Shown piece by piece: positions 20,266-60,333 of a stretch of 64,000 bases of DNA. How positions within the stretch are numbered: position 1 is the stretch's first letter; every line of letters starts with the position of its first letter. A program made the position numbers and the translations under genes. Below the pieces are notes generated by a model. That model did not search any database, was not told the origin of the DNA, and saw nothing but the letters and a program-made list of their open reading frames with translations. Location: the IMG/VR virus record IMGVR_UViG_3300031759_000002; one strand, 5' to 3'. This stretch comes from a virus. Lineage: Duplodnaviria; Heunggongvirae; Uroviricota; Caudoviricetes.

Positions 20266-20583
20266 ATGGCAAAAGAAAAAAATATAAATACAAAATCAAA
20301 ACATGTAGAAGTAGAGTCTAATGTTAATAGAGATGATTTAGCGTTGTTGCTACAAACCGCAATGAATAAGGCATCTAAAGATGGAACCAAAGTAGCATAT
20401 TTCGTAGATGAAGATGATAATCCATCCGAAATAAAAGAATGGGTATCAACCGGTTCAACTTTATTAGATTTGGCAATTTCTAATAGAGCACACGGAGGTC
20501 TACCTGTAGGTAGAGTGACCGAATTATCAGGATTAGAAGGCTGTGTTACGGAAGATACTTTAATTGAAGTTATTATTGAATAA
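20266..20583 (+). CDS. uvsX: UvsX/RecA recombinase N-fragment + 13-aa IntN (20542-20580)
   Basis: WVSTGSTLLDLAIS...GGLPVGRVTELSGLEG, then CVTEDTLIEVIIE*. Confidence 0.92.
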   Translation: MAKEKNINTKSKHVEVESNVNRDDLALLLQTAMNKASKDGTKVAYFVDEDDNPSEIKEWVSTGSTLLDLAISNRAHGGLPVGRVTELSGLEGCVTEDTLIEVIIE

Positions 20584-20630
20584 TTTTTATGTAGCCTGAT
20601 ATTTATATTATATTACCAATATTAAATATT

Positions 20631-21716
20631 ATGGCTAAAAAAGTAACAGATGCACAGACAATAGACACGATTATATCATCTATACACGATGGTTTAAGCG
20701 AAACGGAAATCTTCCAATTAAAAATTGGAAGAAAGCCTATTAGGAGAATTGCAAATGAATTTAATTTAGTTGATAAATTAAAATATAATAACATTAAATA
20801 TAAATCAAATCAACTTAGTGAATATGCGCTTGCTAAAAGAAATATAAAACTTATAGAATTAGATAAAATATATGGAATGTTAGTATTGGAATCCATTAAT
20901 AATGGAGGAATATTACAAGATGTTAAAAACATAATGAAAAATATTTCGCATAAGCAAGTTTTATATTTTTTAAAATATAAAAATTTAGATATACAGAGAA
21001 AAGAGAATTCTAAAAATTATATTAATATACAGTCTAAGATAAACGGAAGAAAAGCAATACCAATTACACGGGGAGTAGAATTAAAACCAATTACCTCAAA
21101 AATCATAAAGAGATTTGAGGAATTAAAACATAAGTTAAAATATAAACAGCAAGTTTATAATACATTGAAGAATGAATTTGGATTTGGAAGTGTAAAATGC
21201 AAGCAATTATGTGAAAAATACGGATATCCTAAAAATAATCCACAAACCGGACGGTTAAATCCGATGTATGGTAAATCGCCCGGAAAAAATGCAGGAATTG
21301 GAGTTAAGTGTTGGATATTAAACGATGGAATAAAATATTTTTGTAGATCTTCATTAGAATTGCGAATAATGTGTCATTTGATTTTTAACAATATTACATT
21401 CCAAATATCAAAACATAGAATAAAATATAAAGATGATATGGGAATTGGTCGAACATACTGTCCTGATATAGTAATAGGAAATTCGATTTATGAAATAAAA
21501 CCATATAATATGTTGCCAATTAGATTAAATGTGTTAAAATCAGAGGCATTAAAAGAATATTGTTCCAGATTTAATTTAAAATATGGAGGGTATTTGACGG
21601 AGAATGATATTGACATATCAAAATATGATATTAATTTTATATCGACTCTTATAAATTCTGGTAAAATAATAATAGACAATAAAAATTTAGAAAAATTAAA
21701 AAGAAATATTATATGA
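20631..21716 (+). CDS. free-standing endonuclease (TnsA-like PD-(D/E)xK) inside the split uvsX
   Basis: NPMYGK, CRSSLELR, RTYCPD...YEIKP; own ATATTTATA at 20599-20607. Confidence 0.78.
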   Translation: MAKKVTDAQTIDTIISSIHDGLSETEIFQLKIGRKPIRRIANEFNLVDKLKYNNIKYKSNQLSEYALAKRNIKLIELDKIYGMLVLESINNGGILQDVKNIMKNISHKQVLYFLKYKNLDIQRKENSKNYINIQSKINGRKAIPITRGVELKPITSKIIKRFEELKHKLKYKQQVYNTLKNEFGFGSVKCKQLCEKYGYPKNNPQTGRLNPMYGKSPGKNAGIGVKCWILNDGIKYFCRSSLELRIMCHLIFNNITFQISKHRIKYKDDMGIGRTYCPDIVIGNSIYEIKPYNMLPIRLNVLKSEALKEYCSRFNLKYGGYLTENDIDISKYDINFISTLINSGKIIIDNKNLEKLKRNII

Positions 21717-22990
21717 ATAAAAAAATAATAACTGTAGGAGAAGTAGATTCTCTCCTTAAAGAAGGAAAAACCATAAAAGTAAAAACATTGAATGGTGAAT
21801 ATACAAAAATAACCAGATTTGTTAATAAAGGTATATTGGATACATATTTAGTAACATTAGATAATGGAAAAACTATAAAAGTGAGTCGAGAACATAAGTT
21901 TTTTACAAATTCTGGATGGGTAGAATGTAAAGATATAATCCCTAATAAACATAGTATTTTATGTGATGATGAAACTTATAGTATAGTATTATCAGTTGCT
22001 TTAATTGGAAAATATAAAATTGTAGATATTACGGTCGAACATCCAGAACATTGTTATTTTGGAAATGGGATGCTAAATCATAACACCGGTAAATCTTTAA
22101 TGTGCGCTCATATTATTGCAGAAACAAGTAAACTTGGTGGATATAGTGTATTTTTTGATTCTGAGTTTGCAGTTGATAGAAAGTTTTGGACTGCGCTTGG
22201 AGTAAATGTTAAAAATACAAATTATGTTCCATTTACAACATTGGAAGATTTATTTACACATATAGAAACTTGTATAGGTGCTTTTAGAAAAGCAAATAAA
22301 GATAAATTATTAACTATTTTTATTGATTCAGTAGCACAAGCTACTATCGAAAAAGAACTTGAAGCAGAACATGGGATTGATGGATATAATACAGGAAAAT
22401 CCCTAATCTTAGGAAAGGCATTCCGAAAAATAACCGGTCTTATTGCTAAACAAAGAATCCTGATTGTATTTACTAATCAATTAAGATTTAATATGAATGC
22501 AGGTCCATTCGGAGACAAATGGACTACTCCCGGTGGAAAATCTTTAAGTTATGCGTGTTCTACCAGAGTAAGAATGGGAACCATTGGAAAATTGAAGAAA
22601 AATGATGAAGTAATTGGAGTAAAATGTACTTGTCAAGTTATTAAGAGTAGAATGGGACCGGGAGCACGAGGAGCACAATTTGAAATCCATTATGATTCCG
22701 GTATCCAAGATTTGGCAAGTTGGCTTAATTTCTCAAAAGAGCGTGGAATTATAACTGGAACTGCTGCTAAATATACATGGAAAAGAGCAAATGGAGAATC
22801 ATTGGAGTTTAATACTTCTAAGTTTGTAGAACTTATGAACTCTGATAAAGATCTTAAAGAAGAGTTTTATCAAGTGATTTGTAATGATTATATTATGAAT
22901 TATAGAGACCCTAATTCTAAAATTGTGGAAGACATTGAAGAAGTATCAGAGGAAGTTCCTCCTATTACTGAATCAAAATCAGAAGAATAA
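21713..22990 (+). CDS. uvsX: 124-aa IntC (21713-22084) + UvsX/RecA C-fragment
   Basis: Intein block B VSREH, block F VDITV, block G HN/T; then TGKS (Walker A), FIDSV (Walker B), FTNQLR, TTPGGK. Confidence 0.92.
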   Translation: MNKKIITVGEVDSLLKEGKTIKVKTLNGEYTKITRFVNKGILDTYLVTLDNGKTIKVSREHKFFTNSGWVECKDIIPNKHSILCDDETYSIVLSVALIGKYKIVDITVEHPEHCYFGNGMLNHNTGKSLMCAHIIAETSKLGGYSVFFDSEFAVDRKFWTALGVNVKNTNYVPFTTLEDLFTHIETCIGAFRKANKDKLLTIFIDSVAQATIEKELEAEHGIDGYNTGKSLILGKAFRKITGLIAKQRILIVFTNQLRFNMNAGPFGDKWTTPGGKSLSYACSTRVRMGTIGKLKKNDEVIGVKCTCQVIKSRMGPGARGAQFEIHYDSGIQDLASWLNFSKERGIITGTAAKYTWKRANGESLEFNTSKFVELMNSDKDLKEEFYQVICNDYIMNYRDPNSKIVEDIEEVSEEVPPITESKSEE

Positions 22991-23009
22991 CTCTTCTAAA
23001 TAGTTACCG

Positions 23010-23038
23010 AAAAGAGTGGTGAAAGTCCACTCTTTTTT
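23010..23038 (+). terminator. intrinsic terminator after uvsX
   Basis: AAAAGAGTGG-N7-CCACTCTTTT + T run. Confidence 0.85.
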
Positions 23039-23087: not shown

Positions 23088-23405
23088 ATGGGACATCGTA
23101 AAGAAAAAATATTAAACGAACAACGTAAACCATTCAACATTCCAATTGAATCAAATACTATTGATTCTTTTAAGGGAATAACATTACCTACTATAAATAA
23201 AAAGTTTCCGGCATTTGATATCAAAGAGTTTTTAGAAATACAGCCTTTATCTAAAGCAACTGGATTGGTTTTTTATTTGGATGAACCAAACTTAAATAAT
23301 AGATTATATCCTACTAAAGTATTGAAAACCGCAATTAAAGAACATAAACGAAAATATATTATAAAATGGTATAATAAATTATGGAATTGGATTAAAAACT
23401 TATGA
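23088..23405 (+). CDS. small chimeric protein: major-capsid (Gol-like) segment + gp21-like segment
   Basis: GITLPTINKKFP...EIQPLSKATGLVFYLD followed by NLNNRLYPTKVLKTAIKEH. Confidence 0.6.
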   Translation: MGHRKEKILNEQRKPFNIPIESNTIDSFKGITLPTINKKFPAFDIKEFLEIQPLSKATGLVFYLDEPNLNNRLYPTKVLKTAIKEHKRKYIIKWYNKLWNWIKNL

Positions 23406-26069: not shown

Positions 26070-27419
26070 ATGAATGAAGAATATAATAAAGTAGATACGT
26101 TAGCATCCCGACAATATGAAAAAGAGTTTCAAGCAAAAGTAATTTCAGTTCTAATTTCAGATAGGGCTTTTTTGGAGAGAATATATGATATATTAACTCC
26201 TGATTTTTTTGATACCGACCAACAAAAATGGATAGTTTCCAAAATCATAGACCACTGGAAACAGTATAAAGATACTCCTACTATGATGATTTTGGGACAA
26301 GAATGTAATTTAATTTCTGATAGTACCCTTCAAATGGCGGTAAAATCCCAGTTATTATCCGCTTTTAAAAATGCATCTGCTACCGATTTAACGTATGTTA
26401 AGGATAAGTTTTTAGAGTTTTGTAAGCATCAAAAATTAAAATCGGCAATTGCAGATTCATTAGAACTTCTTAAAAATCAAAAGTTTGATACTATTAAATT
26501 AAAGTTAGATGAAGCTCTTAAAGCTGGAATGGATAGAGATATTGGGGAAAATTATTTTGAGAGTTTTGAAACTAGGTCGTCTAAAGATACTCGATACACA
26601 ATAAAAACAAATCAACCAATTTTAGATAAATTGATGGATGGCGGATTGGGAAAGGGAGAATTGGGTATTATATGTGGAAATCCCGGTGGATGTAAAAGCT
26701 GGACATTGGTTAATTTTGGAGCGGAAGCACTTAAACAAGGAAAAAATGTTCTTCATTTTACCATGGAATTAAGTGCTGATTATACTGGTCACAGATATGA
26801 TTCTTATTTATCTGGCATTCCATTTCAAGAACGTCAAGCAAATAAGGCTAAAATAAAAGTAGCGTTGGATGCTACGAAGGCTAATGGGGCTGGCACTTTA
26901 TACATTAAATATTTTCCATTAAAAACAGCTACGGCTGATACTTTAAAAGCATTTACCGAACATCTTCAAATTGTCACCGGTATTCATATTGATATGTGGG
27001 TAGTTGACTATGTGGATTTGTTATTATCTTCGACTGCACCCAAAGGTTCTAAATCATATGAAGATGCCGGGGCAAAAAGCGAAGAGGTCAGGTCTGTATT
27101 AGGGTCACTCCAAATAGCCGGTTGGTCGGTCTCTCAGGCTAATCGGTGTTTGTCTTTACAAACTATTGTGAACGAAGAACTTAAAGGTAATATTAAAATC
27201 AAAAATATAATAGTTGGAGATAAGATATTAACACATAACGGATATAGAAAAGTATCTTATATATATCCTGTTAAAAAACAACCAGTGTATAGAATTACAT
27301 TGAAAAGTGGTAAAATTATAGAATGTTCTGAAAATCATAGGTTTCCAACACAATATGAAAAACTAAAAAGTATTATAAGTGGCTTATCTATAGGAGATAA
27401 ATTATTTACTAAAAAATGA
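26070..27419 (+). CDS. dnaB: replicative helicase (gp41/DnaB) N-fragment + 90-aa IntN (27147-27416)
   Basis: GGLGKGEL..GNPGGCKS, FTMEL, VVDYVDLL, SQANR, then CLSLQT...CSENH...KK*. Confidence 0.93.
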   Translation: MNEEYNKVDTLASRQYEKEFQAKVISVLISDRAFLERIYDILTPDFFDTDQQKWIVSKIIDHWKQYKDTPTMMILGQECNLISDSTLQMAVKSQLLSAFKNASATDLTYVKDKFLEFCKHQKLKSAIADSLELLKNQKFDTIKLKLDEALKAGMDRDIGENYFESFETRSSKDTRYTIKTNQPILDKLMDGGLGKGELGIICGNPGGCKSWTLVNFGAEALKQGKNVLHFTMELSADYTGHRYDSYLSGIPFQERQANKAKIKVALDATKANGAGTLYIKYFPLKTATADTLKAFTEHLQIVTGIHIDMWVVDYVDLLLSSTAPKGSKSYEDAGAKSEEVRSVLGSLQIAGWSVSQANRCLSLQTIVNEELKGNIKIKNIIVGDKILTHNGYRKVSYIYPVKKQPVYRITLKSGKIIECSENHRFPTQYEKLKSIISGLSIGDKLFTKK

Positions 27420-27452: not shown

Positions 27453-28511
27453 ATGAAAGAATTATATTACAAAAATAGAGAACATTTTTTATCACAAAAA
27501 TTTGCGGCTCCATTTAAGGCAATTTTAACTAATCACTCTTTATTGGAAATTGATAGTATAATAAAAATATTTAATAAAAATTATATTAGAAATATAAAAA
27601 AAGAAATGATAGTTAAATTATTAAAATATAATGTTGATGGAAGTTGGGTAAAGAGGTTGACCGAATCGAAAAAATTCGGAAAAGATGGATTTTCATTAGC
27701 ATCATTACAACATAGATATGGTGATTTAATCGGCAAACAAATATTTGAGGAGCAAAATAAAAAAATTACAGCACGAAATCAAAATTATACAGTGGAACAA
27801 AAAGAAATAATATCTAAAAGAAAAATATCTAATTTAGGATTGGATGGATATATTAAAAAATATGGAAAAGAAGAGGGTAAAATAAAATGGGAGAAATATT
27901 TAAAAAATTGGAAACTTGGAATTGAGAAACGAAAGCAAAAAGGAAAATGGAAAAATGGAAGGACGCTGCCGGAATTTCAAAGTAAATGGGGAGTAGAAGA
28001 TGGATATAAACGTTGGAGGGCATCATATGATAAAAGAAATCATACATTGTCACTAATAGGATTTATTGAAAGGTTTGGTTCGATTGAAGGGGTTGAGAAA
28101 TATTATAACCATATAGAAAAAATGGTTTCTAATTGTAGAGGTAAAAGTAATCCATACAGCAAAATATCACAAGAGTTGTTTAATAATATAACATCTAAAT
28201 TAGTATCTAAACAAAAAGAATTGGTAAAGTATTTTACCTATAATAAAGAACAATCATTTTTTGCCAATGGAAAATATGGATTAAACTTAATTTATGTTGA
28301 TTTTAAATGTGGGAATGCTATAATAGAGTTTGATGGTAGTTATTGGCATTCCTTCCCATCCATCATAGAAAAAGATAAGCGAAGAGATTTATTTTTAATA
28401 TCATTAGGATATAAAATATTAAGAATTCCAGAAGAAGAATATCTTAAAAATAAAGAAAAAGTAATTAAAAAATGTATTAGATTTGTAAATAAATATTATG
28501 AAAGAACATAA
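27453..28511 (+). CDS. free-standing Vsr-like homing endonuclease inside the split dnaB
   Basis: Repeated YIKKYG.EEG units, VDFKCGNAIIEFDGSYWH, ILRIPE; own ATATTTATA at 27440-27448. Confidence 0.85.
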   Translation: MKELYYKNREHFLSQKFAAPFKAILTNHSLLEIDSIIKIFNKNYIRNIKKEMIVKLLKYNVDGSWVKRLTESKKFGKDGFSLASLQHRYGDLIGKQIFEEQNKKITARNQNYTVEQKEIISKRKISNLGLDGYIKKYGKEEGKIKWEKYLKNWKLGIEKRKQKGKWKNGRTLPEFQSKWGVEDGYKRWRASYDKRNHTLSLIGFIERFGSIEGVEKYYNHIEKMVSNCRGKSNPYSKISQELFNNITSKLVSKQKELVKYFTYNKEQSFFANGKYGLNLIYVDFKCGNAIIEFDGSYWHSFPSIIEKDKRRDLFLISLGYKILRIPEEEYLKNKEKVIKKCIRFVNKYYERT

Positions 28512-28959
28512 ATTAAACACAGAAGAATTTAACCTTGATGAAATTGTTAGTATTGAGTGTATAGGAGATCAAGAAACTATTGATATTACAGTAGATGATA
28601 CTCATATGTTTTTTGCTAATGATATTTATACGCATAATAGTGCCGCTCAGAATGATATTATTGAAGGAGATGACATGGCGGAATCATATAAGAAGTTAAT
28701 GACTTCTGATTTTGTAGCTTCTCAAGCAAGAACAATGGATAATAAACTTACTAATACTGCTAAGTTCCATATTATTAAAAATCGATTTGGTCCCGATGGT
28801 AGTAGTTATATTTGTGATTTGGATGCAGCTACTGGGAGACTTGGAATGTATGAGATGGCTTCTATCGAAGGTATGGAACTTATTAATAAACTCAAAGGTC
28901 AAGAAGAAGCTCAAAAAGATATAATCCGTAAAAAATGGAATAAATCCAAAGGAGAATAA
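28498..28959 (+). CDS. dnaB: 47-aa IntC (28498-28638) + DnaB C-fragment
   Basis: TIDITVDDTHMFFANDIYTHN/S, then ESYKKLMTSDF, KNRFGPDG. Confidence 0.93.
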   Translation: MKEHKLNTEEFNLDEIVSIECIGDQETIDITVDDTHMFFANDIYTHNSAAQNDIIEGDDMAESYKKLMTSDFVASQARTMDNKLTNTAKFHIIKNRFGPDGSSYICDLDAATGRLGMYEMASIEGMELINKLKGQEEAQKDIIRKKWNKSKGE

Positions 28960-29018: not shown

Positions 29019-30302
29019 ATGAATAAGATACCAAATATGTTAGATGAGATGGGAAACTTCACCTTTACTACAAAATATGCAAAATATGAAGAAAAGAAAA
29101 AGAGAAGAGAAACATGGGAAGAAACTGTATCCAGAGTAGAAAAAATGCATTTAAAAAAATACAGTTTTTTAAATGAAAAAGATAAATTGGAAATTGTAAG
29201 AGCATTTGATTTTGTACGTGAACGGAAAGTTACTCCCTCTATGCGTTCTATGCAATTTGGAGGAAAGGCTATAGAAGCTCATAACTGTAGAATGTTTAAT
29301 TGCGGAGTAAGACATATAGATTCTATTCGTGCTTTTGCGGAGTCTTTTTATGCATTATTATGTGGGACTGGTATTGGATTTGGATTAACTAAACGATTTC
29401 TAAATCGTCTTCCTGCATTGGTAAATGCCAACGATAAAACTGGAACTATTATTACATATGTAGTACAAGATTCGATTGAAGGATGGTCCGATAGTATCGA
29501 AGCATTGTTAAATTGTTATTTTAAAAATACAGCATATTCCGGAAGAAAAATTGTATTTGATTATAGTAAAATAAGACCAAAAGGAGCAAAACTTAAAACG
29601 GGTGGTGGTAAAGCCCCCGGTTATAAAGGACTTAAAAATTGTCATAAAAAAGTAAAAGAATTATTAGATGAAATTATTGAAAAGGACCACCAAGTACGAC
29701 TTAAGCCTATAAATGCATATGATATACTTATGCATTGTGCCGATGCTGTTTTAAGTGGAGGAATTAGAAGAAGTGCATGTAGCGTGATATTCGATGCAGA
29801 CGATGATGAAATGATGAATGCCAAAACTGGTAACTGGTTTGATAAAAATCCACAGAGAGCCAGAAGTAATAATTCAGCCATCATTGTCCGTGGAAGAACT
29901 ACATTCAAAGAATTTAAATTGTTAATAGAAAAAACAAAACAATTTGGAGAACCTGGATTTCTCTATGTCGTCGATGAACGTCAATTATTAAACCCTTGTG
30001 TAACAGGAGATACATTGGTATCTACTACTAAAGGAGATATTAGAATAGACGAATTGGTAGAACGATACAACAACGGGGAAAAGTTTGATGCAATATCATA
30101 TAATATAGAAACTCGTTCTTTAGAAAATAATGAAATAACAATGGCTATGAAAACCCGTGAAAATGCAGAAATATTAGAAATCCAAGGAGAAAATGGAGAA
30201 GTTCTGAAATTAACTCCGGACCATAAGGTATTTGTGGAGGGACGTGGATGGATAGAGGCAAAGGATTTGACAGAGACTGATATTTTATTAAAAATAAATT
30301 GA
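29019..30302 (+). CDS. nrdJ: class II (B12) ribonucleotide reductase part 1 + 101-aa IntN-1 (29997-30299)
   Basis: KYA...RRETWEETVSR, PSMRSMQFGG, FNC, GGIRRSA, GEPG, LLNP, then CVTGDT...LTPDH...IN*. Confidence 0.93.
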   Translation: MNKIPNMLDEMGNFTFTTKYAKYEEKKKRRETWEETVSRVEKMHLKKYSFLNEKDKLEIVRAFDFVRERKVTPSMRSMQFGGKAIEAHNCRMFNCGVRHIDSIRAFAESFYALLCGTGIGFGLTKRFLNRLPALVNANDKTGTIITYVVQDSIEGWSDSIEALLNCYFKNTAYSGRKIVFDYSKIRPKGAKLKTGGGKAPGYKGLKNCHKKVKELLDEIIEKDHQVRLKPINAYDILMHCADAVLSGGIRRSACSVIFDADDDEMMNAKTGNWFDKNPQRARSNNSAIIVRGRTTFKEFKLLIEKTKQFGEPGFLYVVDERQLLNPCVTGDTLVSTTKGDIRIDELVERYNNGEKFDAISYNIETRSLENNEITMAMKTRENAEILEIQGENGEVLKLTPDHKVFVEGRGWIEAKDLTETDILLKIN

Positions 30303-30432
30303 TTTTATAAATCCCATATAATATTTACGATAGAGGAAAACAGGATATATTTACGGAATATCCTATAATTACAATTAGAAATATAAAAGATTATTTAACA
30401 ACAGGAAGTAGTTTAAGAAAAGAATTAAAATT

Positions 30433-31281
30433 ATGGAAACAAAACAGAATAAAAAAATTACCAGAATTAAAATAAAAAAAATAACGGTTCGTCCAAATGA
30501 AGATGTATATGATATATCTGTAAAGAATAATCATAATTTTTTTGCTAATAATATTTTAATACATAACTGCTTCGAAATTTCATTTATTCCAGTAACCGAT
30601 GATGGGCGTTGTGGATTCCAAATGTGTAATTTAACTTCCATAAATGGAGCAAAAATAACTTCCAGTGATAAGTTTAAAGACGCTACTTGGGCGGCTACTT
30701 TAATAGGAACTTTACAAGCTGGATATACTTCATTTCCATATTTAGGACATACTTCCGAGGAATTGTCAAATAACGAAGCATTATTAGGAGTTTCTATAAC
30801 TGGAATGATGGATAATCCTGATATATTATTCAATCCAGAGTTTCAGAAACAATCTGCCAAAGTAGCAGTCGAAACTAATAAAATATGGGCTAAGAAAATA
30901 GGCATAAATCAAGCGGCAAGAATTACATGTATAAAACCTGAAGGTTGTGTTGTTCCCGAGACTATTATAAAAACTTCTATCGGAGATAAAACTTTATCGG
31001 AATTGTTTGAGATAAATGGATATAAATTAGAAGATTATGAAAATTTAAATGAAAAACAATTTTTACCTGTAACTTCTAAGATTATGGTTAAAGATGAGAA
31101 TAATGATTGGCAATATATTACAAAGTTATATATAAATGGAGTATCCGATACTATAGATGTGGAAATGGATGATGGAACTATTGTTACAACTACTCCAAAT
31201 CATAAATTTTTAGTTAAAGGTCGGGGATATGTAGAAGCGAGAAATCTAGAAAAAAACGATGATATTTTATCATTTGACTGA
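30433..31281 (+). CDS. nrdJ: 45-aa IntC-1 + NrdJ part 2 (126 aa) + 111-aa IntN-2 (30946-31278)
   Basis: YDISV..HNFFANNILIHN/CFE; CNLTSIN, TLQAGYT, LLGVSITG, TCIKPEG; then CVVPET...TTPNH. Confidence 0.93.
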   Translation: METKQNKKITRIKIKKITVRPNEDVYDISVKNNHNFFANNILIHNCFEISFIPVTDDGRCGFQMCNLTSINGAKITSSDKFKDATWAATLIGTLQAGYTSFPYLGHTSEELSNNEALLGVSITGMMDNPDILFNPEFQKQSAKVAVETNKIWAKKIGINQAARITCIKPEGCVVPETIIKTSIGDKTLSELFEINGYKLEDYENLNEKQFLPVTSKIMVKDENNDWQYITKLYINGVSDTIDVEMDDGTIVTTTPNHKFLVKGRGYVEARNLEKNDDILSFD

Positions 31282-31300: not shown

Positions 31301-32299
31301 ATGTGTAATATATGGTTTAATACACGTTTAATGAAAACTAAAAACACAAAATTATTAAGATTAAAGAGGTTTTTAATTCATAAATATGGACTGATTATTG
31401 GAACTAAGCGATTTAAGACATATTCATGCACTCATTCTGAACGAATGTATATATTTAAATTTGGAAAATGTGACGGTATTAAAAAATATAAAGAATATAC
31501 TGAAAAGTTAAAACCAAGAGGAACGTTGCCATATTATATTAAAAAATACGGAGAAGTCGATGGAACTAAAAAATATAAAGAAAAAAATAGAAAATTATCG
31601 GTGTCGGAAGAATCTTTAAGGTTGAATGGATATTCTGAAGATGATATAAAAAATATAAAGAATATACATTCTAAAAAATCATCTTTAAATATGGAAAATT
31701 GTGTTCGTATATATGGAGCCGATGCAAAATTTAAAATTGAAGAATGGAAGCGAAATCGAGTATGTGTTAGGAAAGTCGATGATTGGGTTTTAAAAAAAGG
31801 AAAGTCATTGATTGAGGCAACGGAATTAGTTAAAAAATATCAAAGTAGAGATTTGAATTTTTTTATTTGTAAATATGGAGATACGGATGGAAAAATAAAA
31901 TGGCGTGAATATATAGATAGTAAAATGAATTGTTTTTTTGGAGAGTCGAAGTCACAATTACAATTTTCAAAATTATTATATATGTCGTTATCGGATGATT
32001 TGAAGTATTTGTTTAGAGGATGTCCAATTACTAATTCGGAAGTTATTGTATTTGAGGACAATCCATATAATTTAAAATATTGTGTGCCAGATGTTGTAAT
32101 ATCCAATATCATAATAGAATTTGATGGGGAATATTGGCATAACATGGAACATATAAAAGAGCGTGATATTGTCAAAGAGTTTTTACTACAGTCGAAAAAA
32201 TATGTCATATTACGAGTAAAAGAAAAACAATTTAAAAAGAATATAACCGAAACGATAGAACAAGTTATAGATCAGATAAATACAAATATAAAATTATGA
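31301..32299 (+). CDS. free-standing Vsr-like homing endonuclease inside the second nrdJ split
   Basis: YIKKYGEVDG repeats, VPD..IIEFDGEYWH, ILRVKE; ATATTTATA at 31281-31289. Confidence 0.85.
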   Translation: MCNIWFNTRLMKTKNTKLLRLKRFLIHKYGLIIGTKRFKTYSCTHSERMYIFKFGKCDGIKKYKEYTEKLKPRGTLPYYIKKYGEVDGTKKYKEKNRKLSVSEESLRLNGYSEDDIKNIKNIHSKKSSLNMENCVRIYGADAKFKIEEWKRNRVCVRKVDDWVLKKGKSLIEATELVKKYQSRDLNFFICKYGDTDGKIKWREYIDSKMNCFFGESKSQLQFSKLLYMSLSDDLKYLFRGCPITNSEVIVFEDNPYNLKYCVPDVVISNIIIEFDGEYWHNMEHIKERDIVKEFLLQSKKYVILRVKEKQFKKNITETIEQVIDQINTNIKL

Positions 32300-33003
32300 A
32301 AATAAAATCAATAAAAACTGGAATGCGTAAATTAACAGTAGATATAGAAGTTGATAAAACGCATACTTATCAATTAAAAAATGGAACAGTAACACATAAT
32401 ACTAATAGCATTGTTTTATCAGCCGCATCCGGAATACATCCACATCATTCTAGGCGCTATCTTAGAAGAATACAAGTTAATAAAGAAGATAATGTATATA
32501 AATATTTTAAATTATTTAATGAACATGCTTGTGAAGAAAGTGTTTGGAGCGAAAATAAAACGGATGATGTTATTACATTTCCAATAGAAGTTCCGGAAAA
32601 TGTAAAAATTAAAGCTGATTTATCGGCAATAGAACATTTAAGACTTATTAAATTAACCCAAGAAAATTGGGTTAATTCTGGAACTACAAGTGTAAATACT
32701 AAGCCATTAAACCACAGTGTTAGTTGTACGGTTATGGTAAAAGATGAAGAGTGGGATGATGTTACCAAGTTTTTATTTGATAATCAAAAGGATTTTACCG
32801 CAGTTTCTCTATTGCCTTTTACGGGTGATAAAATTTACAAACAGCCTCCTATGGAAGCCGTTATAACAGATGAAGAAAATGCAAAGTTTGACGAGTTGTT
32901 AAAAAATTGGTCTATGGTCGATTATAAAAAACTAGAAGAAGACGACGACGAGACACAACATACTGCCGAAGCAAGCTGTGCTAATGGAAAATGTATAATT
33001 TAA
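32296..33003 (+). CDS. nrdJ: 35-aa IntC-2 (32296-32400) + NrdJ part 3
   Basis: VDIEVDKTHTYQL..VTHN/T, then SAASGIHP, YLRRIQ, HSVSCTV, QPPMEAV, C-terminal CANGKC. Confidence 0.93.
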   Translation: MKIKSIKTGMRKLTVDIEVDKTHTYQLKNGTVTHNTNSIVLSAASGIHPHHSRRYLRRIQVNKEDNVYKYFKLFNEHACEESVWSENKTDDVITFPIEVPENVKIKADLSAIEHLRLIKLTQENWVNSGTTSVNTKPLNHSVSCTVMVKDEEWDDVTKFLFDNQKDFTAVSLLPFTGDKIYKQPPMEAVITDEENAKFDELLKNWSMVDYKKLEEDDDETQHTAEASCANGKCII

Positions 33004-41260: not shown

Positions 41261-41307
41261 ATATTATAAGTATATACGATAAACGAAACACAATCAAATA
41301 TTTTTAA

Positions 41308-41336
41308 TTGACAATATTTAATAAAAGTTGTAATAT
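41308..41336 (+). promoter_or_regulatory. sigma70-type promoter (leaderless)
   Basis: TTGACA-N17-TAATAT-N7-ATG. Confidence 0.75.
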
Positions 41337-41343
41337 ATTCTAT

Positions 41344-43543: not shown

Positions 43544-43582
43544 AGAGTATAAATATAACAGAGTTTTTAAAAATTGTCAATA

Positions 43583-47341: not shown

Positions 47342-47342
47342 T

Positions 47343-48308: not shown

Positions 48309-48341
48309 ATTTTATTATATTTTTGTTTAATTGTAAAGTTT

Positions 48342-48962: not shown

Positions 48963-48963
48963 A

Positions 48964-50555: not shown

Positions 50556-51181
50556 ATTTTTATATATAAAACATCACATTGACTAATTTCTCCAGTAAAT
50601 GGATGTCGTGTAACTAATAATTCTTCTACAGGAACAAATCCCATATTTTGAATGTAGTCATTAACTTCACCCATTAGTGGACTATTTTCATTATATCTTT
50701 TAATACTTAATTCTATTAATATACCTTTGCTTTTATTACATGTTAATTTACCCCCCTTCATAATATCGAGTTCTGATCCTTGAGTATCTAATTTAATCAA
50801 GTCAAAATATTCATCTGGTTTAAATTTTTCTTGAAATAATTCATCTAATAATATAACCGGTTCTTCGGTTATTATTATATTATCATCTCTATAATAATTT
50901 GTTAATTCTCTGTATTTTGAATTACCAGTAGAAGTTAAATCTGTTTTGTTTTTATAAAATTTAATTAATTTTTTTTCATCTCCAAGAAATCCTATATAAT
51001 AATTGGGATTTTGCTTGGCTAAGTCAGGTTCACATTCCCTAGTTGCTTCTATAGAATAAATAAAACAATCCGGATAAAAATATTTACAATCATTATGAAA
51101 TTGTCCTCTATTCGCTCCAATGTCTAACACCCTTTTAGGAATAAAATATTTTGATATTAATTTTAAATTTGGATTATCCAT
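50552..51181 (-). CDS. FkbM-family methyltransferase
   Basis: LDIGANRG, LIKLDTQGSELDI. Confidence 0.9.
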   Translation of the reverse strand: MDNPNLKLISKYFIPKRVLDIGANRGQFHNDCKYFYPDCFIYSIEATRECEPDLAKQNPNYYIGFLGDEKKLIKFYKNKTDLTSTGNSKYRELTNYYRDDNIIITEEPVILLDELFQEKFKPDEYFDLIKLDTQGSELDIMKGGKLTCNKSKGILIELSIKRYNENSPLMGEVNDYIQNMGFVPVEELLVTRHPFTGEISQCDVLYIKI

Positions 51182-51186
51182 ATGTT

Positions 51187-51582
51187 TTATATTGTATATT
51201 TTTCGTAACTTTTTTCTTCTATTAACTCTGATTTAGTAAGTTTATTTATTTCTTTTTTGATATTTGCTCGTTTATCATTGGTAAAATATACTGACCTTGC
51301 CAATTGAATAAAATCATTATCAAACTCTTTATTTTTTTCTTTAATTCTTAAGTTATCTTCTATATGCCATAGCGTAGAGTTTGTATTGAATAATGCGGCG
51401 ACTAAATCATGTAATTCATTATTTGTATGATAATCGGTAACTTCATATATAAACTTTAATTTTTCATATTCTTTTTTTACATTTTCTAATTTATATTCTT
51501 CGCTTACTGGAATATTCATCAGTTTAACTTCTAATATAGTAACTTTGTCAAATATTTCGCCAGTTGATACTTCTATATTCAT
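51187..51582 (-). CDS. DUF6165-like protein
   Basis: VSTGEIFDKVTILEVK, LWHIED, LARSVYFTND.RA, EEKSY. Confidence 0.8.
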   Translation of the reverse strand: MNIEVSTGEIFDKVTILEVKLMNIPVSEEYKLENVKKEYEKLKFIYEVTDYHTNNELHDLVAALFNTNSTLWHIEDNLRIKEKNKEFDNDFIQLARSVYFTNDKRANIKKEINKLTKSELIEEKSYEKYTI

Positions 51583-52874
51583 ATTTTTATATTAGATATT
51601 TTTAACCATATAACATTTGGAATGCCACTTTCAAATTTCTCAAGTGTATATGAGAAATCATCTTTTCCTTTTGTAATACTTAATGGTCTATTATAAGCCA
51701 TACTTCTATTTTTTACTTCCGCTTCGTCATTTACACCGGGGTCTCGGTTTTTATGGTATAGTGCAAAAAATACACCAATTGGATTTCGTTTCCATATAAA
51801 TCCTGCTTCTTTTACTCGTTCTCGTGTATCCACATCGGGACATCCCCATCCCGCAAAACAAGGATTTAATCCATTCATTTTATCATATATTGGACGAGTT
51901 AATGTAAATACACCACCATGAAAATTAGAGGCATCCGTTTTAAATATTCTGTATCCGGCTGGAACTTGTTCCATATCCAATTCATTTCCATCTTTATCTA
52001 AAAAAATAACATTGGTTATTGGATATACTGGAGTATTTAAATCATTGACTAAATAATTTACATTTTCCGATGGAATATAATCAACATCGTGGAATATTAA
52101 AACGTCTCCGGTAGAATTTAATGTGGCTACATTATATAATACATTCTGTTTAAATAATTCAGCATCATTCTGTTCACTTATTATAATTTCATATTTAACT
52201 CTTTTAAATCTATCTTGTAGAACCGGTAATAATGTTTGTAAATGTTCTTCTCTGTCTCTATATGATATAATGATTGAATATTTATATTTTGGTTTATGAT
52301 ATATCCAACTGGTTCCGGATGCTGTAATATTTTCTGCTCCGAAAAACTCATCTACTGCTTGTTTAACACCGGCCCAATCATAATCATGCCCTGCGATGGT
52401 TCTTCCCCATTTAACTTTTTGAAACCAATGTTCTAAATCTGCCTTTACATCAATATATTCGTGACTGGCATCAATAAACACAAAATCCAATGATTCATCT
52501 TCGTATAACTTAGAAGCATCAATAGAAGACATTCTGTGAGTATTTATAATATCATCTATATTAGCCAATTTCATATTTTCGTTAAATTTAACGAATAATA
52601 TATCATCACCATCAACTGAATAACATAATCCTGTCTGGTCTCCCGGTTTTTCCAATTCTTTTACTCCCCTAACATCCCAGAAATCAACACAATCAAATTG
52701 TATTTTTTTGCCAGAGTTTTTAATTTCTACTCCCATAAAAGCGGAACTTTTACCAAGTAAAGAACCAATTTCTACAAATTTATATCCGTTGTTTGCCTTA
52801 TTTATTTGGTCCAGATAAATATCTTGGAAATTAAAAAACCCAAGTATGTTTTGATATGTGTGTTGTAAACTCAT
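51579..52874 (-). CDS. SAM methyltransferase + GT7/GT2-like glycosyltransferase fusion
   Basis: VEIGSLLGKS, FVFIDASH, AGHDY; then IISYRDR, FHDVD, GWGCPD. Confidence 0.82.
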   Translation of the reverse strand: MSLQHTYQNILGFFNFQDIYLDQINKANNGYKFVEIGSLLGKSSAFMGVEIKNSGKKIQFDCVDFWDVRGVKELEKPGDQTGLCYSVDGDDILFVKFNENMKLANIDDIINTHRMSSIDASKLYEDESLDFVFIDASHEYIDVKADLEHWFQKVKWGRTIAGHDYDWAGVKQAVDEFFGAENITASGTSWIYHKPKYKYSIIISYRDREEHLQTLLPVLQDRFKRVKYEIIISEQNDAELFKQNVLYNVATLNSTGDVLIFHDVDYIPSENVNYLVNDLNTPVYPITNVIFLDKDGNELDMEQVPAGYRIFKTDASNFHGGVFTLTRPIYDKMNGLNPCFAGWGCPDVDTRERVKEAGFIWKRNPIGVFFALYHKNRDPGVNDEAEVKNRSMAYNRPLSITKGKDDFSYTLEKFESGIPNVIWLKISNIKI

Positions 52875-55631: not shown

Positions 55632-56186
55632 ATGGATAAAAAACAAAAAATATTACTTATTGGAGATGATATAAGATTCTTTTCTGGCGTAGCATGTGCC
55701 TCTAAAGAATTAGTAAAACAAACAATACATAAATATGATTGGGCGATGATAGGAGGAGCCAGTCAACATCCAGAAGCGGGAAAAGTAGCTGATATTTCCC
55801 CTGTATTTAATCACGAATTAAATATTAAAGATTCCTATGCCAAAATATATTCTACACATGGATATGGAGATGCAAATATTCTTTTTCAGGTAATTGAAAT
55901 GGAAAAGCCAAATGCGATATGCATGATTACAGACCCAAGATTTTATGGGTGGCTTTTTAATGTTGAAGCCGCTATTCATTCTATGGGTATTCCTATAGTT
56001 TATTGGAGTATATGGGATGCGCTGCCATATCCTATTTGGAATAGACCTTTTTATGATTCATGTGATGGGTTATTTGGAATAAGTAAGCAGACACATAATC
56101 TTCATAAATGGACGTGTGATCCGTTGAATTGTTTATCTATAGATGGTGAATTTGATGCCGATGGAAATCTAATAAAGTTTATTTAA
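55632..56186 (+). CDS. GT-B (GT4-like) glycosyltransferase, N-terminal domain only
   Basis: KILLIGDDIRFFSGVA, HGYGD, ITDPRF, IWD, GISKQT; stops before the C-domain. Confidence 0.8.
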   Translation: MDKKQKILLIGDDIRFFSGVACASKELVKQTIHKYDWAMIGGASQHPEAGKVADISPVFNHELNIKDSYAKIYSTHGYGDANILFQVIEMEKPNAICMITDPRFYGWLFNVEAAIHSMGIPIVYWSIWDALPYPIWNRPFYDSCDGLFGISKQTHNLHKWTCDPLNCLSIDGEFDADGNLIKFI

Positions 56187-56233: not shown

Positions 56234-56884
56234 ATGAGTGAAGAAATAAAATATTTTGATAATTGTCCTACATGTAATAAAATAAGATATTATAAAACAC
56301 GAGGTTCATATTACGCTAATCGCAATATTAAACGAGAATGTTGGGAATGTAAATTAATATCACAATCAAAAAAATTGAAAGGCAAGCCACGACCTCCATT
56401 TTCGGATGAATGGAGAAAAAATATAGCAACCGGACATAAAAAATCAAAAATTTGGGTAGATTCTATGAATACGCCGGAATATAAAGAGAAACATAGACAA
56501 GTGATGATACGAAATGTATTGAATGGAAAAACGAGAGTATCTGTAAATTCCAGAGCATGTGATTTTTTTAATTACTTAAATGAAAAACTAAAATGGAATG
56601 GAAGACATGGAAAAAATAATGGAGAATATAGAATATATAGATATTTTTTGGATTATTATGAACCAACTCTAAAAGTAATTATTGAATGGGATGAGTCCCA
56701 TCACAATAAAACAAAATCAAAAATAAAAGATATAATACGTCAAAATTATATTTTGGAAAATACAAAATGTGAATTTTATAGGATAGATGATAAACTTAAA
56801 AAAATTAAAAAAGTAGATTCAAGTATAGGAAATAAGACGGAACATCTTCAATCTATTATAAATGAATATTATGAAAACAAGTGA
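56234..56884 (+). CDS. Vsr-like homing endonuclease inside the split glycosyltransferase
   Basis: CPTC/CWEC, YFLDYY..VIIEWDESHH; ATATTTATA at 56221-56229. Confidence 0.8.
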   Translation: MSEEIKYFDNCPTCNKIRYYKTRGSYYANRNIKRECWECKLISQSKKLKGKPRPPFSDEWRKNIATGHKKSKIWVDSMNTPEYKEKHRQVMIRNVLNGKTRVSVNSRACDFFNYLNEKLKWNGRHGKNNGEYRIYRYFLDYYEPTLKVIIEWDESHHNKTKSKIKDIIRQNYILENTKCEFYRIDDKLKKIKKVDSSIGNKTEHLQSIINEYYENK

Positions 56885-57083
56885 AAAAAGAGTAGTGAAT
56901 ATAGATAAAGAAGATTTTGATAGAATTAAAAAATACTGTGATGAAAATGCATATAATATGTCGAAATGGTTAGTGAAAATAGCACTCGAAAATATAAATT
57001 ATACCCATATAGAAACTTTAGATAAAGGAAATGGAAAGATTATAACATTAAAAGAACATAGAACATTTATAAATAAATTATGA
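56871..57083 (+). CDS. ribbon-helix-helix-like protein
   Basis: VVNIDKEDFDRIKKYCDENAYNMSKWLVKIA. Confidence 0.6.
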   Translation: MKTSEKRVVNIDKEDFDRIKKYCDENAYNMSKWLVKIALENINYTHIETLDKGNGKIITLKEHRTFINKL

Positions 57084-57277
57084 TAAATATAACATCAAGT
57101 AAATATAATAAAATAACAGGTCAGATAGAAAGTTTATCTTTAGAAGATGGAATTAGACCCGCATCTGAATATTTTGAGGATACAAAAGATAAAGTTTATA
57201 TTATAAATTCTAAACATCCAAACGACGAAACTAATGAATTTTTTGATAAACTTGAAAATGATAAATTAAAACATTAA
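57080..57277 (+). CDS. hypothetical protein
   Basis: ATGA-coupled 65-aa ORF. Confidence 0.5.
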   Translation: MINITSSKYNKITGQIESLSLEDGIRPASEYFEDTKDKVYIINSKHPNDETNEFFDKLENDKLKH

Positions 57278-57281
57278 ATAT

Positions 57282-58298
57282 ATGTCATATAAAATAAATG
57301 GGAAAATTATAAATAAGAAGCTTATTCACCATGTCCCACATGGGATTTCATCGGAAACTTTTCATCCGGTAGCGGCAACCGATCCAAAGTTAATAGAGTT
57401 TAAACGTAAATTATTTCAAGGAAAAGATTATAATTTCGTTCTATTTTTAAATTCTAGAAATATTAACCGAAAACGAATAAGCAATGCAATTCTAGCATAT
57501 AGACAATTTTGTGACAGTTTAACTAAAGAAGAAGCATCCAAGTGTTTGTTTATTATTCACTCGGAAATAATTTTAGATGCCGGAACTAATAATATTGCAG
57601 TAAAAGAAGCATTATGTCCTAATTACAATATTATATTTTCTCCCGGTAAGGTTTCGCCCGAAGAATTGAACTTGTTATATAATAGCGTTGATGTTACTGT
57701 GTGTGCGTCTTCAAGTGAAGGATTCGGATTATCAACGGCTGAAAGTATAATGGCAGGAACTCCTATTATTGCAACTGTAACTGGAGGTCTTCAGGACCAG
57801 ATGAACTTCGTGGATGATAATGGAAATCAAATTGAGTTTACCGGAAATTGGGGAAGTAATAGTGATGGTAAAGTTAAGAAATGTGGACGATGGGCGTATC
57901 CAGTATATCCAGTAGCCCGTTACGTTCAAGGAAGCCCTCCTACTCCTTACATATTTGATGAAATGACAAGATGGGAAGATTTTGGAGTTGGATTTATGTA
58001 TTGGTATATGACACCCCATAAAACCAGAGAACATTATGGAAAAGAAGGAAGAGAATGGATGTTAAGTTCAACGGGTCTCTCGGAAAAAAGAATGGGTAAA
58101 GAGTTTATTACTACTATGGAGTTTGTATTTTCTAATTGGGTTAAACCAAAGTCATTTGGAGTATTTTCAATTAAAGATTATATTGGTAATATCACAACCA
58201 GAGAACAAGTTGGATTTGAAATACCCAAAATTGATAGAGATGAAATGAAATCTAAAATAGAAAGTATTAAAAATGAGACACATTCTATAAAAAGTTGA
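57282..58298 (+). CDS. GT-B (GT4-like) glycosyltransferase, C-terminal domain
   Basis: HHVPHG, FLNSRNINRK, LYNSVD, SSEGFGLSTAESIMAGTP, TGGLQDQ. Confidence 0.85.
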   Translation: MSYKINGKIINKKLIHHVPHGISSETFHPVAATDPKLIEFKRKLFQGKDYNFVLFLNSRNINRKRISNAILAYRQFCDSLTKEEASKCLFIIHSEIILDAGTNNIAVKEALCPNYNIIFSPGKVSPEELNLLYNSVDVTVCASSSEGFGLSTAESIMAGTPIIATVTGGLQDQMNFVDDNGNQIEFTGNWGSNSDGKVKKCGRWAYPVYPVARYVQGSPPTPYIFDEMTRWEDFGVGFMYWYMTPHKTREHYGKEGREWMLSSTGLSEKRMGKEFITTMEFVFSNWVKPKSFGVFSIKDYIGNITTREQVGFEIPKIDRDEMKSKIESIKNETHSIKS

Positions 58299-58322: not shown

Positions 58323-58330
58323 ATGTGAAT

Positions 58331-58837
58331 ATGATTGAACTTAAAAAGACAGATGTAAATGCGGTTGTTCCAACTAGAGGAACATCATATGCCGCAGGAT
58401 ATGACTTATATAGTATTGAAAGTTATGAACTCCAGCCATTGGAACGAAAACTGTTTAAAACTGGTATAAATATAGCAATTCCAACGGGATTATTTGGAAG
58501 AATATCTCCCCGCAGTGGATTATCTTTTAAAAATGGGATTGATGTGTTAGGTGGCACGATAGATTGTTTTTCGGGGGATTGTACTATTAAGACTGAAAAG
58601 GGTCAAAAATTTATAGAAGAATTGAGAATAAATGATATTGTATATTCAGTTAATGAAAATTTAGAATTGGAGCGAGATTTTGTATCTGCTATAGTATCTT
58701 TAGGAGATAAAGAATTATTAGCAATAGAAACTGATGATGATTATATAGAAATAACACCGGGTACTCAAGTATATACCGAAACTGGAATAAAACGTGCCGA
58801 CGAACTAAAATTAGGTGAAAAAATATTACACTTTTAA
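58331..58837 (+). CDS. dut: dUTPase N-fragment + 90-aa IntN (58565-58834)
   Basis: AAGYDL, KTG, RISPRSG, GGTID, then CFSGDC...ITPGT...GEKILHF*. Confidence 0.92.
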   Translation: MIELKKTDVNAVVPTRGTSYAAGYDLYSIESYELQPLERKLFKTGINIAIPTGLFGRISPRSGLSFKNGIDVLGGTIDCFSGDCTIKTEKGQKFIEELRINDIVYSVNENLELERDFVSAIVSLGDKELLAIETDDDYIEITPGTQVYTETGIKRADELKLGEKILHF

Positions 58838-58842
58838 TGAAT

Positions 58843-58891
58843 TTTCCCTTTGTAATCGCTATTTATACATAGATAATGATTACTAAGGAAA
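58843..58891 (+). promoter_or_regulatory. hairpin burying the endonuclease SD, late motif in the loop
   Basis: TTTCCCTTTGTAATC/GATTACTAAGGAAA, 13 bp with one bulge and one mismatch; CTATTTATA at 58859-58867. Confidence 0.6.
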
Positions 58892-58895
58892 TATT

Positions 58896-59798
58896 ATGAT
58901 AAAATGTGAAATATGCGGACATACGACAAATAGAAGATTAATAGACCATATTATTAAAACTCATAAATTATCAGTTGATGTTTATAAAAAAACATATGGT
59001 CCAGTCGTTTCAGATGAAGAACAGAAAAGAATAAGTAAAATGATGGAGGAAAATTGGAAAAATCCATTATATAGAAATAAAACTAATGCTTCTCGAAAGA
59101 CAAAATGGACTACAGAGTTAAAAGAACGACAGAGTAAAATAATTAAAAAAACATATGAAGAAGGTCATAAAAATTGGAATATTGGTCTAACTAAAGAAAT
59201 TGACGACCGAGTTAGGTTAATTGGAGAGAAAAATAAAAAACACTTAACTGGAAGGACGAAAGAAATATATCCATATTTACAAAAGCATTCGGAGTTTATG
59301 AAGCAAAATTATAATAAATATTGGGGAGAAGAAGGGGGGTGTACTAAATATTTTAGAGACGAAGATAATTTCGAAATATGGAGGAATAAAATATCCAAAA
59401 CATTGGCGGATAAATGTAAATCTGGAGAATTGGATTTTGTATCTAATCATTTTAAAACTGGATATTATAAAAATATTTTTTATGCAAGTGGATTGGAGTT
59501 AGAGGCTATGACAATATTCGACTCTAATGAAAATATAAAAACTTGGCGAAGAAACTTCGATGTGATAGAATATATTGATTGTGAAGGAAAAATGCGAAGA
59601 TATTTACCCGATTTTGAGTTGATATTAAATACAGGAAGACGAATAGTAATTGAGATGAAGGGGTTTCCAGATAAAAATTTAATAGAAAAAACATTAGCGG
59701 CTAAATTAAAATATAACAATGACTTTTATGTATGTTATTCCAAAACAGAATTAAAAACTATAATAAATGAAATTATCAACAATAAAATCAATAAGTAA
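58896..59798 (+). CDS. free-standing TnsA-like endonuclease inside the split dut
   Basis: CEIC...HI...H, ASGLELE, RRYLPDF...IEMKG. Confidence 0.78.
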   Translation: MIKCEICGHTTNRRLIDHIIKTHKLSVDVYKKTYGPVVSDEEQKRISKMMEENWKNPLYRNKTNASRKTKWTTELKERQSKIIKKTYEEGHKNWNIGLTKEIDDRVRLIGEKNKKHLTGRTKEIYPYLQKHSEFMKQNYNKYWGEEGGCTKYFRDEDNFEIWRNKISKTLADKCKSGELDFVSNHFKTGYYKNIFYASGLELEAMTIFDSNENIKTWRRNFDVIEYIDCEGKMRRYLPDFELILNTGRRIVIEMKGFPDKNLIEKTLAAKLKYNNDFYVCYSKTELKTIINEIINNKINK

Positions 59799-60333
59799 AG
59801 TTAAAAAAAAGACATATGATATAACAGTAGAGAATAATCATAATTTTTTTTGTAATGATTTTTTAATACATAACTGCGATTATCGTGGAGAAATAAAAGT
59901 TATTCTAATAAATCTTGGAAAAGAGCCATATAAAATTAATATTGGAGATAAAATGGCTCAAATTATATTTTCGGCATATACTGTTCACGAGTTTAAATTA
60001 GTCGATGAATTATCACAGACCGAACGAGCAGAAAAAGGATTTGGAAGTACTGATATTAAACCAGAACCAATTCCATCAGTTAAGTCGATTGATAAATTAG
60101 ATGCGGCAATTGATTTATCGAAACAATATGATAAAAATATAATATCAATAACCAAAGAATCTATTGGAGCAGTTGACCTTAATGTTAAGGGATTCGTAAC
60201 ACATAATAATACATTACCAATTCCTCCCCGAACCAATTCTGATATTATCGAAGAGTATAAAAAACACGGTGGAAATATTTCTCATATTAAACCATATGAG
60301 GAACAAATACGAGAAAAGATGAAAAGTTTATGA
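59767..60333 (+). CDS. dut: 36-aa IntC (59767-59874) + dUTPase C-fragment
   Basis: YDITVENNHNFFCNDFLIHN/C, then DYRGEIKVIL, GDKMAQ, RAEKGFGST. Confidence 0.92.
   Translation: MKLSTIKSISKVKKKTYDITVENNHNFFCNDFLIHNCDYRGEIKVILINLGKEPYKINIGDKMAQIIFSAYTVHEFKLVDELSQTERAEKGFGSTDIKPEPIPSVKSIDKLDAAIDLSKQYDKNIISITKESIGAVDLNVKGFVTHNNTLPIPPRTNSDIIEEYKKHGGNISHIKPYEEQIREKMKSL

Follow-up and report, generated by a model that had tools for sequence, protein, structure and literature searches.

Fractured phage genes, in which two separately encoded parts of an enzyme each carry one half of a split intein, were described by Dassa, London, Stoddard, Schueler-Furman & Pietrokovski 2009 (PMC2677866) and comprise gp41-1 to gp41-9, NrdJ-1/2, NrdA, IMPDH, DnaE, ligase and terminase examples. 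In that arrangement the N-terminal part of a phage DNA-metabolism gene with its N-terminal intein half (IntN), a short spacer, a free-standing gene for a GIY-YIG or Vsr-like endonuclease, and the C-terminal intein half (IntC) with the rest of the gene follow each other on one strand. Some of these inteins, namely gp41-1, gp41-8, NrdJ-1 and IMPDH-1, are ultrafast orthogonal split inteins (Carvajal-Vallejos 2012, as cited in PMC11168065; Pinto 2020, PMC7090010). Here we describe a stretch of 64,000 nucleotides (the window) that is the minus strand of positions 159571-223570 in a 353,772-bp IMG/VR virus record (IMGVR_UViG_3300031759_000002, rated complete by CheckV), with a guanine plus cytosine content of about 29%. 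In it four DNA-metabolism enzymes, the recombinase UvsX, the helicase DnaB, the ribonucleotide reductase NrdJ and the dUTPase Dut, are encoded as nine pieces. We consider it quite probable that the elements between these pieces are five genuine split inteins, inserted at active-site motifs, which trans-splice the four enzymes and are sorted by cognate complementarity.

The five intein pairs (Table 1) lie in Walker A of UvsX, in the SQxNR motif of DnaB/gp41, at the thiyl-radical NPC and the KPEG-T sites of NrdJ, and in motif III of the dUTPase. The first-pass annotation of this DNA had listed the lengths of all halves, the terminal HN of the five IntC and the +1 residues, and translation of the open reading frames (ORFs) with cutting at the junction motifs reproduced these exactly. 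It had also assigned each half to a separate ORF, which is not the case: the ten halves are found on nine ORFs, because ORF 30433-31281, the middle piece of NrdJ, carries both IntC-1 and IntN-2. Intein profiles matching at the split loci are Pfam PF14890 and NCBIfam TIGR01445 and TIGR01443. Cys1, the penultimate His, the terminal Asn and a +1 Cys, Ser or Thr are present in all five inteins. The residues of a class 1 intein are complete in four of them (UvsX C1/SREH/HN/T, DnaB C1/SENH/HN/S, NrdJ-1 C1/TPDH/HN/C and NrdJ-2 C1/TPNH/HN/T), the block B motif T/S-x-x-H being missing from the Dut intein only. The earlier claim that every junction restores a motif stands, as all five match uninterrupted homologues. 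The uninterrupted UvsX of the relative L035, 77% identical, reads GLEG-TGKS across the junction, and the DnaB of G006 reads SQSNR-G. At the two NrdJ sites, the NrdJ gene of L056 and about 15 further uninterrupted ones, whose middle parts are 78-82% identical, have LLNP-CFEISF and TCIKPEG-TNSIVL, and the dUTPase spliced in silico aligns with that of Roseobacter phage DSS3P8 free of gaps across the junction in motif III.

A trivial explanation would be that the inteins are contiguous and that errors of assembly or sequencing created the stops and frame changes, which the first-pass annotation had itself named as the observation that would overturn it. This explanation is effectively refuted. The exact 105-aa protein composed of the UvsX N-part and its IntN is called on 19 contigs, 16 of which are 0.2-1 Mb long. 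Complete endonuclease or endonuclease-like ORFs of 300-361 aa with their own starts lie between the halves in four of the five pairs, and the split points recur in diverged IMG/VR sequences from many metagenomes, at UvsX in L034, L046 and G009, at 25 Dut loci and at about 40 DnaB loci. Taken together these observations argue against assembly error, and independent contigs show the same architecture for UvsX, DnaB and Dut. Amber suppression as a way of reading through the IntN stops is ruled out, since the stop codons of the five IntN ORFs are TAA or TGA and none is TAG. When compared with G009 (IMGVR_UViG_3300000553_000030), a related 65.8-kb fragment, the IntN are 70-85% and the IntC 59-87% identical, whereas the exteins are 41-58% identical. 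The intein halves are thus conserved as well as or better than the essential exteins, which argues for selection on splicing.

Table 1. Positions of the extein, intein and intervening features at the split-intein loci of the window. Lengths are from ORF translations cut at the junction motifs.
Locus	Feature	Position	Strand	Length (aa)	Net charge	Description	Evidence
UvsX	N-extein	20266..20541	+	92		ends GLEG inside Walker A	Pfam RecA profile positions 3-63
UvsX	IntN	20542..20583	+	13	-4	CVTEDTLIEVIIE, TAA stop; atypical split	translation; recurs in relatives
UvsX	free-standing ORF between the halves	20631..21716	+	361		presumed homing endonuclease; PD...EIK-like motif	
UvsX	IntC	21713..22084	+	124	+2	block B SREH; ends NHN; +1 Thr	PF14890
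UvsX	C-extein	22085..22990	+			starts TGKS	Pfam RecA profile positions 62-261, E 1.6e-30
DnaB	DnaB/gp41-type helicase N-extein	26070..27146	+	359		ends SQANR	Pfam DnaB_C
DnaB	IntN	27147..27419	+	90	+10	TGA stop	translation; phmmer to 6qaz
DnaB	free-standing homing endonuclease gene	27453..28511	+			Vsr-like (DUF559 / MTES_1575); overlaps IntC start by 14 nt	Pfam
DnaB	IntC	28498..28638	+	47	-10	+1 Ser	profile match and translation
DnaB	C-extein	28639..28959	+				
NrdJ	part 1	29019..29996	+	326		ends LLNP	Pfam RNR_Alpha, RNR-II_ins_dom; uninterrupted homologues
NrdJ	IntN-1 (NrdJ-1)	29997..30302	+	101	-9	TGA stop	TIGR01445 E 4.6e-15
NrdJ	spacer	30303..30432	+			130 bp; split lacks endonuclease gene; five in-frame stops	
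NrdJ	IntC-1 (NrdJ-1)	30433..30567	+	45	+5	+1 Cys is the thiyl-radical Cys of NPC	
NrdJ	part 2	30568..30945	+	126		ends IKPEG	78-82% identical to uninterrupted NrdJ, L056-L062
NrdJ	IntN-2 (NrdJ-2)	30946..31281	+	111	-9	TGA stop	TIGR01445 E 8.4e-7
NrdJ	free-standing homing endonuclease gene	31301..32299	+			Vsr-like (DUF559); ATGA overlap with IntC-2 start	Pfam
NrdJ	IntC-2 (NrdJ-2)	32296..32400	+	35	+4	+1 Thr	TIGR01443 E 1.6e-5
NrdJ	part 3	32401..33003	+	200		starts TNSIVL	
Dut	dUTPase N-extein	58331..58564	+	78		from internal Met (ORF open from 58295); ends GGTID	Pfam dUTPase profile 3-74
Dut	IntN	58565..58837	+	90	-10	block B TPGT (no His); TAA stop	
Dut	free-standing endonuclease-like gene	58896..59798	+	300		PD...EMK motif; overlaps IntC start by 32 nt	weak RE_endonuc match
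Dut	IntC	59767..59874	+	36	+3	+1 Cys	TIGR01443 E 3.9e-7; 25 split homologues
Dut	dUTPase C-extein	59875..60333	+			starts CDYRGE (motif III)	Pfam dUTPase profile 68-128

The known layout, an N-part with IntN and an IntC with the C-part in frame on one strand, is present at all five loci, so that the first-pass annotation was right to place them among the fractured phage genes. A free-standing endonuclease gene lies between the halves at four of the five (with spacers of 47, 33, 19 and 58 nt at UvsX, DnaB, NrdJ-2 and Dut), and at each of these four there is an overlap of 4-32 nt between the endonuclease and IntC ORFs. The genes at DnaB and NrdJ-2 encode Vsr-like DUF559 endonucleases, a family already known from the 2009 collection. 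Those at UvsX and Dut are presumed nucleases, judged by motif and position because no family matched convincingly. For the UvsX-locus ORF, Pfam and PHROG searches returned no match; homologues occupy the equivalent place in L034, L046 and G009, and its stop overlaps the IntC ATG. Four of the loci are classic fractured genes by their anatomy, while NrdJ-1 has lost its endonuclease gene or never had one, a state already known from gp41-7. Other details were also noted in 2009, such as an atypical terminase intein with a long IntC, and the NrdJ site NP-C one residue past the NrdA site. The kind of element is already established, the literature covering fractured genes and orthogonality as well as charge reversal and atypical splits. 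What differs from the 2009 collection is that this phage has five such elements in one genome plus three contiguous inteins (two of HNH type in a portal gene and one of LAGLIDADG type in a PhoH-like gene, eight in all), that one enzyme, NrdJ, is in three pieces, and that two endonuclease genes lack an above-threshold Pfam match. Furthermore, the eight fractured enzyme types listed there do not include dUTPase, and the only UvsX mentioned is an unfractured ORF located upstream of gp41 loci.

The inteins share split site and length classes with the characterised gp41-1 and NrdJ-1 set, and by phmmer the DnaB IntN matches the gp41-1 intein structure 6qaz (E 4e-14) and the NrdJ-1 IntN the solved NrdJ-1 intein 8ubs (E 5.7e-12). 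The sequences have diverged, with homology still recognisable, and the alleles are not the same. The characterised gp41-1, gp41-8, NrdJ-1 and IMPDH-1 were pooled from separate metagenomic contigs and tested in E. coli, whereas here five pairs occur in one genome and probably in one infected cell. Any orthogonality found here would thus be a product of natural selection. After translation, each IntN would find its own IntC and fold with it into a HINT domain, and trans-splicing would ligate the exteins, giving UvsX, the helicase, a 652-aa NrdJ from three polypeptides and the dUTPase. We suggest that sorting would come from the complementarity of five diverged intein lineages that fall into three electrostatic or topological classes, with each pair encoded in cis and probably on one mRNA.

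The UvsX intein had been noted earlier as using a different split site, and this agrees with our analysis. With an IntN of 13 aa and block B in the 124-aa IntC, it is an atypically split (S1-type) intein, and the same split is found in three other contigs. The S1-type intein VidaL is likewise split near its N-terminus and has a long IntC with blocks B, F and G. The UvsX IntC has PDB sequence matches to the DnaX, DnaB, gp41-1 and VidaL inteins, and its residues 3-123 align to chain positions 23-141 of VidaL in structure 6vgv (E 2.7e-4), which fits a split of this type. Natural S1-type inteins are divided behind the first beta-strands, with a block B-bearing IntC of more than 100 aa and published IntN of about 15-37 aa, 15 aa being "the shortest characterized". 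The UvsX IntN falls below that record, with 14 aa in L034 and L046 and 13 aa in G009 and this phage. It also combines Cys1 with Thr+1, and its splicing is a prediction. An IntN of 13 aa therefore seems new. A terminator-like hairpin is found after the C-terminal part of uvsX at 23009-23037. The fractured uvsX is flanked by two small paralogous ORFs, 19854-20261 and 23088-23405, with a common motif (NRIYPNDVLNEAI... versus NRLYPTKVLKTAI...).

At the NrdJ locus, relatives have contiguous maxi-inteins with LAGLIDADG-type inserts at both insertion sites, which marks both as recurrent intein targets. Two of these IMG/VR relatives (L072 and L077) have maxi-inteins at NP-C that end ...ARR-C and ...VGQ-C instead of HN-C; these could be decayed, or their C-terminal splice junction could be non-canonical. 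A limited search of the literature found no description of a natural three-fragment NrdJ assembly, and the assembly predicted here seems to be a new point.

The Dut intein belongs to a family for which we found 25 split loci. The length of the IntC is fixed at 36 aa, and in all ten diverged members C1, HN and C+1 are invariant while block B reads TPGT or TPNS. This raises the question whether the Dut pair, or at least one of the pairs, no longer splices and instead holds the enzyme halves together as a non-covalent clamp. The lack of the block B His in every family member would fit such a role, as would the lack of any match between the Dut IntN and the sequences of solved (PDB) structures. 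However, a mere clamp would not need the invariant Cys1, terminal HN and +1 Cys, and the block B His is dispensable in the PolB16 split intein (PMC10189870). The Dut junction moreover lies inside catalytic motif III, where an unspliced insert of 126 aa would be hard to tolerate. We regard a clamp as quite improbable. A model of the Dut IntN/IntC complex reached an interaction prediction score from aligned errors (ipSAE) of 0.65, with the best control at 0.01; at least 89% of contacts are common to the runs, and the partner has a predicted local distance difference test (pLDDT) value of at least 67. Among solved complexes 58 of 80 attain this mark, as do 2 of 110 mismatched pairs, although custom alignments were used here and these counts are only a rough guide. 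Since split-intein complexes have already been solved, the pass may reflect likeness to them and not binding. For the family itself, we found nothing relevant on a dUTPase intein or split intein in open-access papers and preprints, and no member in 50,697 GenBank phage records. A widespread dUTPase split-intein family without the block B His thus seems new. The dUTPase C-extein has an extension of about 90 aa past the dUTPase domain which is without family match and is absent or diverged in the closest relatives.

The sorting of cognate halves is a real requirement, as all five pairs are in DNA-metabolism genes and are probably expressed together. It is needed within a single protein too, because the middle piece of NrdJ would cyclise if its own IntC-1 and IntN-2 reacted. 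The first-pass annotation had proposed that charge explains the sorting. For DnaB the underlying observation is sound: its pair is charge-reversed (Table 1), and among about 40 split DnaB loci in IMG/VR, compared with one contiguous locus, the IntN carry +5 to +16 and the IntC -5 to -15, so that this gp41-type reversal is family-wide. The polarity of gp41-1, with an acidic IntC and a basic IntN and thus contrary to that of DnaE-type split inteins, was already published (bioRxiv 10.1101/546465). As a general explanation the proposal fails, since NrdJ-1, NrdJ-2 and Dut all pair an acidic IntN with a basic IntC, a polarity common to the Dut family, and two of the three are on the same polypeptide. 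Charge cannot sort these three. According to the same preprint, the charge network is not by itself a sufficient explanation of orthogonality.

Another earlier suggestion was that NrdJ-1 and Dut might cross-splice, given that 16 of 22 residues in their IntC tails are identical. The count is correct, but we reject it as evidence of cross-splicing because the tail consists of the generic catalytic blocks F and G. The solved HINT domain 6y75, although unrelated, has 13 of 19 residues of this motif in common, and the inteins of phage DNA polymerases, NrdA and terminases match it at 62-73% identity. An appreciable, tolerated cross-reaction between NrdJ-1 and Dut, or a reaction of IntC-1 with IntN-2, could still be argued from the overall identity of the two IntC (20/36), from their common combination of an acidic IntN with a Lys-rich IntC start, and from the report that residual cross-talk mostly involves atypically split inteins (Pinto 2020, PMC7090010). 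Yet the N-terminal capture segments of the two IntC differ in length (about 24 versus 15 residues) and in sequence, and the two IntN are identical at only 24 of 71 positions. Chimeras or a cyclised middle piece would also waste an essential enzyme, and yet the arrangement is stably assembled in 19 contigs. Cross-splicing on such a scale is in our view unlikely. Between pairs, identities reach at most 34% for IntN and 56% for IntC, and at comparable divergence gp41-1, gp41-8, IMPDH-1 and NrdJ-1 showed no cross-splicing in 20 of 20 heterologous combinations (PMC11168065; PMC7090010). From these published relatives we rate the mutual orthogonality of the five pairs as likely.

It is also conceivable that sorting is mainly kinetic or spatial, such that N and C fragments made from the same polycistronic mRNA pair during or soon after translation; strict orthogonality would then be unneeded and cross-reaction in vitro possible. 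All pairs are encoded in cis on one strand with their halves 0.13-1.2 kb apart, and three of them share a charge polarity. In the window scan no plus-strand terminator-like site was found between any IntN ORF and its IntC ORF, and together with the ORF overlaps this suggests co-transcription and translational coupling. However, co-transcription is our inference, the identity between IntN of different pairs is just about 30-34%, and the published relatives, with separate plasmids used for expression, show intrinsic orthogonality (PMC11168065). We therefore find it rather unlikely that kinetics is the main sorting principle, and regard cis encoding as a possible extra aid to sorting by cognate complementarity.

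Several observations weigh against this explanation by complementarity or against parts of it. Besides their polarity, NrdJ-1, NrdJ-2 and Dut share a K-rich/E-rich strand pattern, and electrostatics cannot discriminate between them. The UvsX IntN is shorter than any characterised IntN, and the Dut family as a whole is without the block B His, the usual driver of the N-S acyl shift. Complex models of this kind are stated to pass close cousins of a true partner as well, and the one for Dut says nothing on specificity. Finally, a promoter scan for promoters borne by the homing endonuclease genes gave 88 matches against 89.6 expected from shuffles, so without enrichment, and the operon structure is weakly based. 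For the more demanding claim, that all five pairs are active and orthogonal in one infected cell and form a co-selected natural set, including splicing with the shortest natural IntN (13 aa, Cys1/Thr+1), splicing of Dut without the His and an ordered three-fragment assembly of NrdJ, we see the chances as evenly balanced.

The first-pass annotation had drawn attention to the co-residence of five split inteins. The number is confirmed, but it is not unique: the G009 fragment also has five, which all lie within about 40 kb. Of these, UvsX contains two that are atypical, DnaB another two and Dut the fifth. Closer relatives carry 3-5 intein C-termini per 54-71-kb fragment, and other jumbo-phage records that share the Dut intein mostly have just that one intein C-terminus. 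With a related fragment bearing the same number, the load is a trait of the clade. In G009 (~40600-52823, L048-L051) two atypical split inteins, whose IntN measure 13 and 15 aa, divide UvsX into three pieces. DnaB is likewise tripartite there, the first of its inteins lying in Walker A, and every split comes with a separate endonuclease gene.

Split inteins are in routine use wherever proteins are to be ligated or labelled or genes delivered in parts, and the field seeks orthogonal sets, very short IntN peptides that can be synthesised, and inteins with unusual catalytic needs. Candidates of each sort are present in this phage and its relatives, for instance the UvsX family with IntN of 13-14 aa and the dUTPase family of at least 25 members without the block B His. 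That five pairs have co-existed in the same genome, with two of them sharing a polypeptide, is a natural counterpart of engineered tandem trans-splicing. Biologically, it shows how large a burden of homing elements the replication genes of a phage clade can bear and still survive. The system would be of value mainly for the new split-intein parts it supplies and because orthogonality could be studied in a natural setting.

Further mobile elements are found in the same genome. A GT4-type glycosyltransferase is split into a 184-aa N-piece (55632-56186) and a 338-aa C-piece (57282-58298), with a DUF559/PvuRts1I-like endonuclease gene and two small ORFs in the space between them (spans 56234-56884 and 56862-57277) and no intein; its two halves presumably associate non-covalently. 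G009 has the same split with a different endonuclease gene. We considered a sixth, decayed or atypical intein here, given a CLSIDG-like end of the N-piece and TLKEH in a small ORF, and rejected it: the string is conserved as part of the glycosyltransferase in G009, the search for HINT matches was empty up to E 10, and the space ahead of the glycosyltransferase domain is too small for an IntC. A pattern scan found no relatives of the N-piece. Two more free-standing homing-endonuclease-like genes lie on the minus strand at 36620-37546 and 40140-41111, one with treble-clef zinc-finger repeats and a PHROG endonuclease match and the other GIY-YIG/SegE-like. The replication module is heavily colonised by mobile nucleases. 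The contiguous inteins are outside the window. In a portal-like ORF of 1424 aa (G000:C1:295035-299306, minus strand) two inteins, both HNH-type, lie about 17 residues apart, the first CVAGET...VFSHN-T and the second CIEGNT...LFTHN-C. A PhoH-like ATPase (G000:C1:330742-332622, minus strand) has a LAGLIDADG intein inside Walker A (GPAGTSK-...THN-T) that escapes the NCBIfam intein-end models; with its Ala start, Trp in block B, Cys in block F and Thr in block G it looks like a class 3 intein.

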